Assembly (NCBI GenBank): GCA_947623555.1
Contig: CANQGW010000001.1
Coordinates: forward strand, 20,691-84,690
Length of the DNA: 64,000 nucleotides
Direction of reading: 5' to 3'
DNA from: an uncultured Clostridia bacterium
GTDB lineage: Bacteria; Bacillota; Clostridia; TANB77; CAG-508
Numbering within the stretch: the first letter of the stretch is position 1; each line of letters opens with the position of its first letter. The notes beneath the pieces were generated by a model. The model made no database searches. It worked only from the letters and a program-made list of their open reading frames with translations, and had not been told where the DNA came from. Of this stretch, positions 4,702 through 7,776 are shown in pieces. Position numbers and translations under genes: made by a program.

Positions 4702-5607
4702 TTAGTCTGTGGTTTTAAATTTTTTTATAAATTTTTCATCATTAATCCAGTCTTCTCTAACTTTTACCCATATTTTTAAATTTACTTGTTCTTCTAGCAT
4801 TTTTTCTAAATCTTCTCTTGCATACATGCCTATTTTTTTAAGCATTTTGCCGTCTTTTCCTATTATAATGCCCTTATGTGAATTTCTTAAGCAATAAATA
4901 GTAGCTTCTATATTAAAAACAGGCTTTTCATTCATTGTTTTTGTTCTTTTTAGTTTTTCTATTTCTACAAAAATGCCATGTGGTACTTCTTCTTGTAAAA
5001 ATTTTAAAGCCTTTTCCCTAATTATTTCTGATGCTAAATCTCTTAATGTTTGGTCTGTATATTCTTCTTTACTATAATAAGCTGGCCCTTCTTTTAAAGT
5101 TTTTTCTATTTCATTTAAAACAATTTCTATATCGGCTTTTTTTAGTGCAGATATAGGTATAACAGTTTGAAAATTGTATTCATCTTTAAAATCATTTATT
5201 ATACTTGCTACTTTTTCTTTTTTTACTAAATCTATTTTGTTTATTATTAAAATTGCATTTGATTTAGCTTCTTTAATTTTTTCTAAAATTAGTTTGTTAT
5301 CAGCTTTGCAATTTTCTGCTGTAGCATCAACTACAAATAAAATAACATCTGCATCTGGGATTGTACTATATGCTGTGTCATTCATGGTAGTGCCAAGCTT
5401 TGATTTTGCTTTATGTATGCCTGGTGTATCTATAAAAACAATTTGTGAATTTGGCCTATTTACAATTGCTTTTATAGCAGTTCTAGTAGTTTGAGGTTTA
5501 TTTACTACTGCAGATATTTTTTGCCCTATTAAATTATTTAAAATACTTGATTTTCCTACATTTGTTTTTCCTACAAGTGCTACAAAACCAGATTTAAAAC
5601 CTTCCAT
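4702..5607 (-). CDS. era: GTPase Era
   Basis: GKTNVGKSS (G1), DTPG (G3), NKID (G4) and a C-terminal KH domain are present, and the length of 301 aa fits Era. Confidence 0.95.
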   Translation of the reverse strand: MEGFKSGFVALVGKTNVGKSSILNNLIGQKISAVVNKPQTTRTAIKAIVNRPNSQIVFIDTPGIHKAKSKLGTTMNDTAYSTIPDADVILFVVDATAENCKADNKLILEKIKEAKSNAILIINKIDLVKKEKVASIINDFKDEYNFQTVIPISALKKADIEIVLNEIEKTLKEGPAYYSKEEYTDQTLRDLASEIIREKALKFLQEEVPHGIFVEIEKLKRTKTMNEKPVFNIEATIYCLRNSHKGIIIGKDGKMLKKIGMYAREDLEKMLEEQVNLKIWVKVREDWINDEKFIKKFKTTD

Positions 5608-5658
5608 TCATACTCCCTTTTATTTTTATAATATTTTTTGAAAATTTTATAGTTAAAT

Positions 5659-5686
5659 TTGACTTTTTTCAAAAGTATGTTATAAT
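5659..5686 (+). promoter_or_regulatory. sigma-A-type promoter with extended -10 for a short plus-strand RNA
   Basis: TTGACT (5659-5664), a 16-nt spacer and TGtTATAAT (5678-5686). It mirrors the minus-strand promoter at 5954-5982. Confidence 0.5.
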
Positions 5687-5692
5687 AATAAT

Positions 5693-5783
5693 AGAAGTTA
5701 GGAACCACAAAGTGTGGTTGCCACGAAAAGTATATTTTAATACACATCTCTAGGCATGCAGAGGTGTGTATTTGTTTTTATTT
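5693..5783 (+). ncRNA. candidate ~90-nt antisense small RNA (putative type I antitoxin)
   Basis: It starts about 7 nt after the -10 box, has a 5' hairpin AACCACA-AAG-TGTGGTT (5704-5720), and ends at the hairpin plus T-tract at 5741-5783. It contains no credible ORF. It is convergent with the small peptide gene and overlaps its 3' end. Confidence 0.35.
5741..5783. terminator. hairpin terminator shared by the convergent sRNA and peptide transcripts
   Basis: TACACATCTC..(loop)..GAGGTGTGTA is followed by TTTGTTTTTATTT on the plus strand. The T-tract is weaker on the minus strand. Confidence 0.55.
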
Positions 5784-5888
5784 ACTCAATATTATTATTA
5801 ATGTAATAATAAGAGTTAATGTTATGATAGTTATGCCAATAAAGGCACAAAGTAGTAAATAAATAATAGTAATATAATATTCTACCAT
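5778..5888 (-). CDS. 36-aa hydrophobic peptide (candidate type I toxin)
   Basis: My own translation is MVEYYITIIYLLLCAFIGITIITLTLIITLIIILSK. A strong SD (AAAGGAGGTG) lies 6 nt upstream of the ATG. The peptide is a single TM helix with a C-terminal Lys. It is below the ORF-track size cutoff. Confidence 0.45.
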   Translation of the reverse strand: MVEYYITIIYLLLCAFIGITIITLTLIITLIIILSK

Positions 5889-5953
5889 AGACATCACCTC
5901 CTTTATGTAAAAAGGAGGCAACCACACTCTGCTTTTCCTAACTTCTAAAATTT

Positions 5954-5982
5954 ATTATATGGTAAATTTTAACAAAAGTCAA
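5954..5982 (-). promoter_or_regulatory. sigma-A-type promoter for the small peptide mRNA
   Basis: On the minus strand: TTGACT, a 17-nt spacer, TATAAT, then 8 nt and GAAGTTAGGAA. This is the same leader start as the plus-strand RNA. Confidence 0.5.
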
Positions 5983-6009
5983 TGTTTTTTAAAACATTTG
6001 TTTATTTTT

Positions 6010-7776
6010 TTAATTTGCATTATCTAATATTTTATATTTAGGTTTTGCCTCATAATGTGTATGTAATAATTCATGTGCTAAATGACCACCAGGTTCACCT
6101 AAATATTCTTTATATATTTTTTTCAAAATTTCATTTTCATGTGATTTTCTAATGTTGCTTTTTTCATCAATAGTATACATTGCTTTTGCACGTTTTTCAC
6201 GAACATTTACTGTCATGCGCGTTTTAGCGCTTTGTATTGGCTGACCACCACCCATTATGCAACCACCTGGGCATGCCATAATTTCTACAAATTGGTAATC
6301 TGCCTTTCCAGCTTTTATTTCCTCCATTATTTGCCTTGCATTTCCCAATCCATGGGCAACTGCTACTTTGATTTCATCTTTTCCTATTTTAATTGTTGCT
6401 TTTTTAATACCTTTTTGTCCCCTTACTTCCTCGAAGTTAATTTTTTGTAACTCCTTACCTGTTACAATTTCAGATACAGTTCTTAAAGCTGCCTCCATTA
6501 CGCCACCAGTCACCCCAAAAATAGCACCTGCACCTGTTGCCTCGCCCATAGGATCATCAAAAGGCTCGTCTTCTAATCCTGTAAAGTCAATATTAGCTTG
6601 TTTTATCATACGAGCAAGCTCCCTTGTTGTAATAACACTATCTACATCATATAAGCCATTTTCTTTCATTTCGTCCCTTTGTCTTTCAAACTTTTTAGCA
6701 ATACATGGCATTACAGAAACAACATAAATTTTCTCTGGATTAATTTTATATTTTGCTGCAAAATATGTTTTTATAAGAGCTCCAAACATTTCATGTGGTG
6801 ATTTACAACTTGATAGATGTGGCAAATTTTCTGGATAATTCATTTCTATATATTTTACCCATCCTGGGCTACAAGAAGTAATCATTGGTAAATTATCATT
6901 TTCTTTTAAACGTTTAACAAACTCTGTTCCTTCTTCCATAATTGTAAAATCTGCTCCGGTATTAGTATCAAAAACTTTATCAAAACCTAACCTTTTTAAA
7001 GCAGTTACCATTTTTCCTGCTACATTTGTACCAATTGGCATTCCAAACTCTTCGCCTAATGCCACTCTAACAGCAGGAGCAGTTTGTACTACTACATAAG
7101 TATTTTCATCTTTTAATTTTTCCCACACCTCTTTAGTAGAATCTTTTTCATGTAATGCACCTGTTGGGCAACTTTCTATACATTGACCACAAAAAGTACA
7201 ATTTACATCATTTAAGCTACAATTACCAACAGTAGAAATGCAAGATGTAAAACCTCTTGATGAGCTATCTATTGCACCTATATTTTGAACATTTTTACAA
7301 GTAGCAACACACCTTCTACATAAAATACATTTATTAAAATCTCTAACAATTGAAGGAGATTTATCATCTACTTCATACTCATTTTTTTCACCATCATAAC
7401 GAATATTATCCATATTTAACTTTGTTGCCAAGGCTTGTAACTCACAATTTCCATTTCTTATGCAAGTTAAACAGTCCCTATGGTGATTAGACAAAATTAA
7501 ATCTAAAATCATTCTTCTTGCCTCTATAACCTCTGGTGAATTTGTATGTACAACCATTCCCTCTTCAACCTTTTGTATACAAGAAGTTGCAAAACCGCGT
7601 CTGCCCTCTACTTTAGTAATACACATTCTACAGTCACCAACTTCGTTAATATCTTTTAAAAAGCAAAGAGTTGGAATATCTATATTTACCTTTCTTGCCG
7701 CTTCTAAAATAGTTGTTCCTTCTGGAACCTTTACATCCTTATTATCAATTTTTAAATTTACCATATTTTGAGACAT
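6010..7776 (-). CDS. hydA: [FeFe] hydrogenase catalytic subunit (HydA/HndD type, bifurcating complex)
   Basis: It has an N-terminal 2Fe-2S and multiple 4Fe-4S Cys motifs, and the H-cluster motifs TSCSPGW, MPCIAKKFE and EIMACPGGCIMGGGQP. Confidence 0.9.
   Translation of the reverse strand: MSQNMVNLKIDNKDVKVPEGTTILEAARKVNIDIPTLCFLKDINEVGDCRMCITKVEGRRGFATSCIQKVEEGMVVHTNSPEVIEARRMILDLILSNHHRDCLTCIRNGNCELQALATKLNMDNIRYDGEKNEYEVDDKSPSIVRDFNKCILCRRCVATCKNVQNIGAIDSSSRGFTSCISTVGNCSLNDVNCTFCGQCIESCPTGALHEKDSTKEVWEKLKDENTYVVVQTAPAVRVALGEEFGMPIGTNVAGKMVTALKRLGFDKVFDTNTGADFTIMEEGTEFVKRLKENDNLPMITSCSPGWVKYIEMNYPENLPHLSSCKSPHEMFGALIKTYFAAKYKINPEKIYVVSVMPCIAKKFERQRDEMKENGLYDVDSVITTRELARMIKQANIDFTGLEDEPFDDPMGEATGAGAIFGVTGGVMEAALRTVSEIVTGKELQKINFEEVRGQKGIKKATIKIGKDEIKVAVAHGLGNARQIMEEIKAGKADYQFVEIMACPGGCIMGGGQPIQSAKTRMTVNVREKRAKAMYTIDEKSNIRKSHENEILKKIYKEYLGEPGGHLAHELLHTHYEAKPKYKILDNAN

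Follow-up and report, generated by a model that had tools for sequence, protein, structure and literature searches.

Because their peptides and RNAs are tiny and evolve fast, type I toxin-antitoxin systems are difficult to detect, and nearly all knowledge of them comes from a few cultured model bacteria. The design expected of such a system pairs a silent messenger RNA (mRNA) with an antisense RNA that is transcribed at a higher level. This design principle is summarised in PMC6563280 and PMC8594479. The described systems that bear most closely on the locus reported here are par of Enterococcus faecalis pAD1 (fst RNA I/RNA II) together with the par-like loci of the Fst/Ldr family (reviewed in PMC7472228), txpA/RatA, bsrG/SR4 and bsrE/SR5 of Bacillus subtilis (as summarised in PMC8594479 and PMC6563280), hok/sok of plasmid R1, with the 5'-3' fold-back of its full-length hok mRNA (Franch et al. 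1997, as cited in PMC8594479), and the Clostridioides difficile type I modules CD2517.1/RCd8, CD2907.1/RCd9 and CD0956.2/RCd10 (PMC6563280). Here we describe a cassette that is probably type I toxin-antitoxin-like, located at positions 5655-5985 of a 64,000-nt stretch of DNA (hereafter the window; contig CANQGW010000001.1, positions 20,691 to 84,690) from an uncultured gut Clostridia bacterium. The cassette fits no named family and would represent a new type I family in which the architecture of control is a variant one.

A first-pass annotation, made from the letters of the window alone, had placed on the minus strand a promoter, a leader whose anti-Shine-Dalgarno (anti-SD) segment pairs with the Shine-Dalgarno (SD) sequence, and a 36-aa open reading frame (ORF), and on the plus strand a promoter driving an ORF-less RNA of ~90 nt. 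All of these parts were found at their proposed positions (Table 1), and the arrangement is repeated in 60 distinct loci, so it is not a chance pattern. From the features described below we infer the following mode of action. The minus strand would give an mRNA of about 210 nt for a single-span membrane peptide of 36 residues, the presumed toxin, and translation of this mRNA would be silenced by two conserved helices, one formed by the leader end on the SD and the other by CUAUCAU on the start codon. The plus strand would give, from the stronger promoter, a small RNA (sRNA) of ~90 nt, the presumed antitoxin, perfectly complementary to the 3' untranslated region (UTR) of the mRNA across a hairpin that the two transcripts share; the resulting 3' duplex may mark the mRNA for ribonuclease (RNase) III-type decay, by analogy with RatA/txpA and SR4/bsrG. 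With a leaky hairpin, part of the toxin mRNA would extend about 45 nt into the complement of the sRNA 5' end. This tail could pair over about 29 bp with the mRNA's own 5' leader, burying or shielding the 5' end in a panhandle that may be likened to the 5' upstream helix of par RNA I (PMC7472228) or to the fold-back of hok mRNA. Since the sRNA carries the same leader and is perfectly complementary to the tail, it would compete with the leader for the tail, displace it and open the clamp. A 5'-3' clamp combined with leader mimicry seems to us to fall just short of an even chance. We propose more tentatively that the sRNA acts as an antitoxin by this mimicry, opening the clamped read-through mRNA and exposing both of its ends to RNases, and that the whole RNA chassis serves as a portable control device for membrane toxins throughout the order.

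The layout is closest to that of par/Fst-RNA II. As in par, the promoters are convergent and one intrinsic terminator is shared, giving complementary stem-loops able to start RNA-RNA contact; a 5' stem-loop is predicted over the SD, and the extreme 5' end of the toxin mRNA would be buried, here by the tail panhandle or by the 5' arm of the terminator. Chromosomal as well as mobile-element copies occur in both cases. The differences lie in the repeats and in the peptide. The DRa and DRb repeats of par are direct, so that its two RNAs complement each other in their 5' parts and the translation start is covered by RNA II, whereas the repeats of the present cassette are inverted; the 5' parts of both RNAs are therefore alike, and the sRNA cannot pair with the SD region or cover the translation start. 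Unlike Fst, the peptide has no PXXXG motif, no long charged tail and no proline, ending only in S-K-(Q/S)-K, and it matches no Fst model. The sRNA matches no Rfam antitoxin family.

The three B. subtilis systems resemble the cassette in having, in a layout of Gram-positive type, an antisense RNA on the 3' side that covers the mRNA 3' end, a small hydrophobic toxin and a structured, poorly accessible ribosome-binding site, with duplex degradation as the likely mode of action. Their antisense RNAs also overlap the ORF, whereas here the overlap halts at the stop codon (sRNA end at ~5783), and searches of Pfam, NCBIfam and Rfam revealed no sequence relation between their peptides or RNAs and ours. 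Neither PMC8594479 nor PMC6563280 describes a mirrored leader or a 5'-3' panhandle for the B. subtilis families. In the summary accounts of hok/sok and of AapA1/IsoA1 from Helicobacter pylori, the full-length mRNA is closed by long-distance 5'-3' pairing and is translationally inert, as is predicted here. In those accounts the antisense RNA binds the 5' part and activation requires 3' trimming, whereas the antisense RNA of the present cassette is complementary to the 3' side of the proposed clamp and duplicates its 5' side; both systems belong to Gram-negative hosts and have unrelated peptides. The C. difficile modules are similar in that their toxins are unannotated and without homology to known families, and some copies lie in prophages. 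They differ in their toxins of 50-53 aa with a lysine-rich C-terminal region and in the long complementary region shared with their antitoxins, and they have no sequence similarity to the cassette; PMC6563280 does not mention mirrored leaders for them.

The generic sequence features of type I systems are present in the window. The peptide is 36 aa long and about 90% hydrophobic, within the usual size (under 60 aa) and hydrophobicity of type I toxins, and the antisense RNA is able to pair with the toxin mRNA through at least 45 nt of perfect complementarity in the mRNA 3' UTR, reaching only the stop codon. Given sequence hallmarks of this kind that are conserved across the family, the type I interpretation put forward by the first-pass annotation appears sound.

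Table 1. Features of the cassette and its flanking genes (window coordinates; folds and functional roles are predictions).
Feature	Position	Strand	Basis
Perfect palindrome AAACAAATGTTT, candidate LexA-type operator, 10 nt 5' of toxin -35	5992-6003	-	read from sequence
Toxin promoter, TTGACT-17-TATAAT	5954-5982	-	11/12 consensus positions
Toxin mRNA 5' leader AGAAGUUAGGAAAAGCAGAGUGUGGUUGCC, mirrored segment; predicted transcription start near 5946	5917-5946	-	sequence
SD-sequestering hairpin, anti-SD CCUCCUUU (5918-5911) with SD AAAGGAGG (5904-5897), 8 bp	5897-5918	-	fold and alignment
Anti-SD as DNA, CCTCCTTT	5918-5911	-	sequence
36-aa hydrophobic ORF MVEYYITIIYLLLCAFIGITIITLTLIITLIIILSK (MVEYY...ILSK), 5888-5781, with stop codon 5780-5778	5778-5888	-	ORF list
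AUG helix inside ORF, AUGGUAG with CUAUCAU	5888-5882 with 5830-5824	-	fold and alignment
Shared hairpin, 13 pairs; sRNA terminator on plus strand, U-run to about 5783	5739-5772	both	sequence
Shared hairpin, minus-strand side: poor U-tract AUUAAAAU after it; 5' arm CACACCUCUGC complementary to leader segment GCAGAGUGUG		-	
Antisense sRNA, ~90 nt, without ORF: leader AGAAGUUAGGAA, hairpin, linker, terminator	5693-5783	+	covariance model R1, 53.9 bits
sRNA 5' hairpin, AACCACA with UGUGGUU	5703-5709 with 5713-5719	+	fold
Tail, complement of sRNA leader, present only in read-through toxin-strand RNA	5693-5722	-	predicted partner of toxin leader
sRNA promoter, TTGACT-16-TGtTATAAT, TG extension	5659-5686	+	11/12 consensus positions
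era gene	4702-5607	-	
[FeFe]-hydrogenase gene	6010-7776	-	

The ORF is a real, conserved gene under purifying selection. Fifty-nine ORFs could be aligned, sharing the start M-[VI]-E, a hydrophobic span of ~30 residues and the ending S-K-[QS]-K, with a pooled pN/pS (the ratio of nonsynonymous to synonymous polymorphism) of 0.56 and a median dN/dS (the corresponding ratio of substitution rates) of 0.44. The repeat unit is thus not a common non-coding miniature inverted-repeat transposable element (MITE), the outcome that would have undone the first-pass interpretation. Conservation places the start at the M-[VI]-E codon, 8 nt past GGAGG. Within the ORF, the ACT and ATC codons that supply the partner of the start-codon helix are frozen at synonymous positions in 56/59 and 54/59 loci, which indicates constraint at the RNA level. 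When 5.8 billion predicted proteins were searched with a profile of the peptide, 758 clusters matched at E <= 1e-3; none carries a Pfam domain, the few that are named are called 'hypothetical protein' except for one evidently spurious ABC-permease label, and one cluster derives from a Caudoviricetes record. Many of the database entries are 50-73 aa long, gene callers having chosen an ATG or GTG farther upstream, within the leader (e.g. MWFASYKEVRRMVE... in clusters P0001-P0120).

Both presumed translational locks were recovered by RNAalifold from an alignment of 53 units (316 columns), namely the SD/anti-SD hairpin and a second helix, AUGGUAG:CUAUCAU, which takes in the start codon and four further bases. 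Across the 53 loci, pairing is kept in 98.5% of the alignment cells for the SD helix and in 99.7% for the AUG helix, and the ensemble unpaired probability is predicted to be 0.09 for the SD and 0.10 for the AUG. Only local helices were recovered, because the 3' part of the alignment is ragged. In silico folding of the two RNAs, one of the checks proposed at first pass, gave structures far more stable than those of shuffled sequence (z = -4.1 for the sRNA and z = -5.3 for the toxin mRNA). Judged by consensus match, the sRNA promoter is the stronger of the two: TATAAT is present in 56/58 loci and the mean match is 11.55 of 12 positions, against a family mean of 9.43 of 12 for the toxin promoter.

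Homologous cassettes are expression islands in vivo, with borders where they were predicted. The RNA evidence consists of unstranded, assembled metatranscriptome contigs of two homologues, L062, a mouse-gut relative of the window locus, and L069, covered in bovine-gut runs. In seven of eight mouse-gut runs the L062 contigs extend from 5698-5707 to 5898-5944 of that locus, while in the eighth they start at 5635; beyond these limits the flanks are empty, except that one run has an additional contig upstream (5516-5679). On the left, coverage begins 8-10 nt into the predicted toxin leader; on the right, it ends at the shared hairpin (5898, 5902) in some contigs and close to the predicted sRNA start (~5940) in others. 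At L069, a consensus-type locus, coverage in the bovine runs ends sharply at 6013/6014, the predicted sRNA start, and one contig of 83 nt (6014-6095) coincides with the predicted sRNA (6013-6095). Transcription of this type of locus, including a contig with the size and position of the predicted sRNA, is thereby documented in homologues.

At least 60 distinct homologous cassettes were recovered by combining BLAST against relatives, which revealed the cassette throughout much of the genus, at two or three copies in some genomes and in varied contexts, with a scan for the leader pattern over one genome per species (at least 120 stretches, about half of them true cassettes). Among the matches listed, all true cassettes belong to uncultured Clostridia or 'Clostridium sp.' metagenome-assembled genomes, and their host guts are those of rabbit, goat, mouse, buffalo and human. 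The host lineage is an order of gut Clostridia that are uncultured and have small genomes. From 51 sRNA sequences a covariance model (R1) was built; it matches 227 of 401 genomes of this order, spread over 35 of 50 genera, and each of these genomes has 1-7 copies. In the genome of the window, a 1.39-Mb assembly of 62 contigs from a rabbit-gut metagenome, R1 matches the window locus, two further full cassettes on contig 61:2514-2597 (L184, peptide MGESLIVITYLLFYGIIGTSLINLALLIIICFLLHRQ) and contig 23:7549-7640 (L186, unrelated hydrophobic peptide MSFILFLIYALMVSSTINVALLTILYIKYINSIINKE), and one orphan sRNA on contig 5:55845-55929 (L182), directly 3' of the stop codon of another gene. The search for paralogues suggested at first pass was therefore productive within the same genome as well as beyond it, and the view of a single copy in this genome, based on a DNA BLAST that had found the window locus alone, was overturned. 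No family of Pfam, NCBIfam or Rfam covers these elements: searches of Pfam and NCBIfam with five peptide types gave noise only, up to E <= 10, and Rfam gave no real match for either RNA, with noise for the consensus-type locus and, for the window, the Listeria family rli28 as best hit (E = 2.5). This rli28 hit scores 23 bits against a gathering score of 45, spans 5824-5964 on the minus strand from promoter to ORF start, and is probably due to chance.

At least four unrelated hydrophobic peptides are carried by one and the same RNA chassis, made up of leader, SD lock, shared hairpin and mirrored sRNA (examples are L186, L184, L033 and L042, L040 and L177). One such cassette, on a viral contig (IMG/VR, L177), combines this chassis with a different peptide, MNDMYKLLTLLLAFGTFIIVLLTFIFKFS, and its own mirrored leader. 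Some cassettes with unrelated peptides have an extra hairpin between leader and SD. Tandem cassettes were also encountered, with two or three units about 520-900 bp apart (L065:4961-6212; L109; L136), and neighbouring units of these arrays bear different peptide subtypes. Several toxin genes have decayed, by frameshift in L025 and by truncation in L143 and L088, beside sRNAs that are intact, and in L024 (genome G024) the toxin half is deleted and the sRNA half is left downstream of hydA. The orphan sRNA genes L182 and L024 retain promoter, leader and terminator without a toxin ORF; they follow the stop codon of a convergent gene, for which they also supply the terminator.

These observations bear on two other views of the cassette. 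The peptide matches no toxin family and a dN/dS below 1 shows only that it matters, as would be the case for a small membrane protein that does no harm (for instance one with a regulatory or accessory role), tuned by a cis-antisense RNA and having no part in a toxin-antitoxin system. We regard this as unlikely, for a double translational lock with a stronger antisense promoter is typical of type I systems and unusual for housekeeping small proteins, and the 1-7 copies per genome, the changing contexts, the tandem arrays, the pseudogenised ORFs beside intact sRNAs, the orphan sRNAs, the viral-contig copy and the swapping of unrelated hydrophobic peptides on one chassis all speak against it. In a second view the sRNA serves chiefly to regulate in trans, or simply as a strong terminator for neighbouring genes, and its overlap with the peptide gene is incidental. 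It draws on the orphan sRNAs lying without a toxin gene directly past the stop codons of unrelated genes (after hydA in L024; on contig 5 of the window's genome), and on the 5' part of the sRNA, which is nearly invariant across paralogues. It is nevertheless highly improbable: in 60 loci the sRNA and a hydrophobic ORF stand in the same geometry, the orphans look like deletion remnants with flanks in common with full cassettes, and the contact in trans that is predicted between the sRNA 5' end (GGAGAAACCAC) and the anti-SD region of the toxin mRNA is weak, barely better than shuffles (mean z -1.2). A type I toxin-antitoxin-like cassette is the reading retained in what follows.

The hairpin shared by the two transcripts is conserved, with 5 compensatory pairs. 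The first-pass annotation had taken it for a terminator common to both RNAs; the hairpin itself stands, as a good terminator for the sRNA strand only. When U-tracts were scored on alignment columns, a precaution made necessary by A/U-extended stems that confound counting, at least 5 U in the 8 nt after the hairpin were found in 53/53 loci on the sRNA strand and in 26/53 on the toxin strand, where 12/53 loci have a tract with 2 U or fewer. This asymmetry suggests that termination at the hairpin is obligatory on the sRNA strand and leaky for the toxin mRNA, and read-through of the toxin strand past the hairpin is plausible. An alternative fold was also considered, in which the mid-leader segment (GCAGAGUGUG in the window, CAGAUGUG in most loci) pairs with the 5' arm of the hairpin. 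It is 89.9% paired and appears in the minimum-free-energy fold predicted for the short form of the window mRNA; there is almost no covariation for it within alignment A1, and changes in its favour were noted by eye only, in outlying loci (L001 group, L045, L065, L177). It may represent a possible alternative conformation of the terminated mRNA.

The mirrored leaders recur throughout the family. The first-pass annotation had described a promoter-leader inverted repeat of ~65 bp, of which the leader part holds, 5687-5722 and 5917-5952 being complementary at 83% over 36 nt; the promoter portions are only 72-73% alike, and family-wide the likeness of the two promoters does not go beyond the promoter consensus. 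In every locus the toxin and sRNA leaders are alike at the 5' end, where both RNAs start with a purine-rich AGGA-type sequence, and at the 3' end (..GUGGUU(U)GCC). Locus-specific variants occur in both copies, such as GAAGUUAGGAA in the window group, AUAGGAAAUGA in most loci, and AUAGAAAAUGA, GGAAAAAGAG, GAAGAUGAGA and CAGGUAAUCA elsewhere (L029, L040, L060, L108, L177 and the C23 locus each have their own variant in both leaders), a pattern not expected from a common trans factor.

Pairing between the leader and the tail of the read-through mRNA would account for this likeness at the RNA level. In the long forms, a panhandle of 25-30 bp is predicted in the minimum-free-energy fold of 53/53 loci, with a mean of -85 kcal/mol against -54 kcal/mol for the short form; the values for the window are -94.8 and -56.3 kcal/mol, with 29 leader-tail pairs. 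On the alignment these 29 proposed pairs are 89.3% paired, as against 43-52% after a shift of the partners by 1-3 columns, and 13 pairs are changed on both sides, values reached by 0-1 of 500 shuffles. The leader:tail duplex is predicted at a mean of -41.1 kcal/mol versus -31.1 kcal/mol for the mirror duplex and is the better of the two in 52/53 loci (Wilcoxon p = 3e-10; window, -49.6 versus -43.2 kcal/mol). In 50/53 loci the leader's own tail beats the mean of the tails of other loci.

The differences between the two leader copies are themselves oriented. At such sites G or U stands in the toxin copy and A or C in the sRNA copy, so that G.U pairs survive on the toxin strand while the other strand would have A.C mismatches. 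A 1-nt indel makes the 5' third of the joint leader alignment unreliable, and duplex energies and the 3' 17 nt were used instead; in these 17 nt, which adjoin the anti-SD, transitions are G.U-compatible on the toxin strand in 139 cases versus 3, or 33 versus 3 without three family-wide sites. Owing to these differences, the toxin leader lacks the small AACCAC/GUGGUU hairpin formed by the sRNA 5' end. Such a strand-asymmetric pattern argues for RNA pairing on the toxin strand and points to selection for leader-tail pairing there. The duplicated leaders, singled out by the first-pass annotation, have turned out to be a trait of the whole family.

The mirrored leaders might instead act at the DNA level, as terminal inverted repeats of a small mobile cassette whose likeness is maintained by copying or gene conversion, or as a duplicated binding site or 5' stabiliser serving both RNAs, with no RNA panhandle. 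The multiple copies in many genomic contexts fit such a view, the common AGGA-type 5' ends could be a shared stabiliser, half of the loci could terminate the toxin mRNA ahead of the tail, and RNA contigs ending at the terminator were seen. It is doubtful all the same. A shared trans factor would not be expected to leave leaders that co-vary locus by locus and prefer their own tail; homogenisation of the repeat predicts no strand bias, contrary to the 139 versus 3 transitions and to a mirror duplex ~10 kcal/mol weaker in nearly all loci; and the conserved ORF sets the cassette apart from a non-coding MITE.

Several points weigh against a toxin-antitoxin cassette controlled by a leader-tail clamp. 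The peptide and the sRNA owe their presumed roles as toxin and antitoxin to analogy. The runs holding the window itself are rabbit-gut DNA runs only, with no RNA run among them, and the contigs of the homologues are unstranded, which leaves the strand behind the region past the hairpin, including any read-through, unassigned. About half of the loci (26/53) have a decent U-tract on the toxin strand too. The strand asymmetry of the leaders comes mostly from the three sites common to the whole family and may therefore reflect few independent events, and part of the leader covariation could stem from DNA-level homogenisation of the inverted repeat. Opening or closing of the panhandle barely alters the predicted accessibility of SD or AUG. 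A panhandle working as a translational switch, which would permit translation of read-through RNA only, was considered and set aside for little support, the predicted unpaired probability of the SD moving only from 0.09 to 0.20 and the AUG staying paired.

The cassette lies between the era and [FeFe]-hydrogenase genes, both on the strand of the toxin gene. No convincing terminator was seen at 5983-6010, from the end of the hydrogenase gene (stop codon at 6010) to the toxin promoter, where only a weak A/U hairpin AAUGUUUU..AAAACAUU occurs; transcripts of the hydrogenase gene may hence enter the toxin gene. At the other end, read-through of the toxin transcript would run into era. Two sequence motifs near the toxin promoter were also recorded. 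A block AAAATTT-N4-5-TGTTCGCT[TA]G abuts or overlaps the toxin -35 in about 25/60 cassettes (L029, L059, L065, L071, L090, L138, L142, L151, L165 and others), outside the subgroup of the window; in some loci it forms GTTCG-N11-CGAAC together with the spacer, and it may be an operator. A box of the AAAC-N4-GTTT type is present in the window (Table 1) and, in the same genome, at recA (AAACATACGTTT, just after the -10); at lexA, AAATATTTGTTT stands at the -35. The palindrome of the window could be a LexA-type box of this AT-rich clade; such a box is found in only 11/60 family loci, and the motif is expected by chance in AT-rich DNA.

Among the sampled genomes of this order of uncultured gut bacteria, more than half contain the cassette, often in several copies, and it is transcribed in mouse and bovine gut communities. 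If the proposed mode of action is true, leader mimicry would be a new mode of antisense control, exerted through competition for an intramolecular clamp, and the cassette, with its compact format of 330 bp, would lend itself to direct testing in laboratory strains. The covariance model R1, together with the peptide profile, would allow the annotation of thousands of small genes that are now missed or assigned a wrong start.

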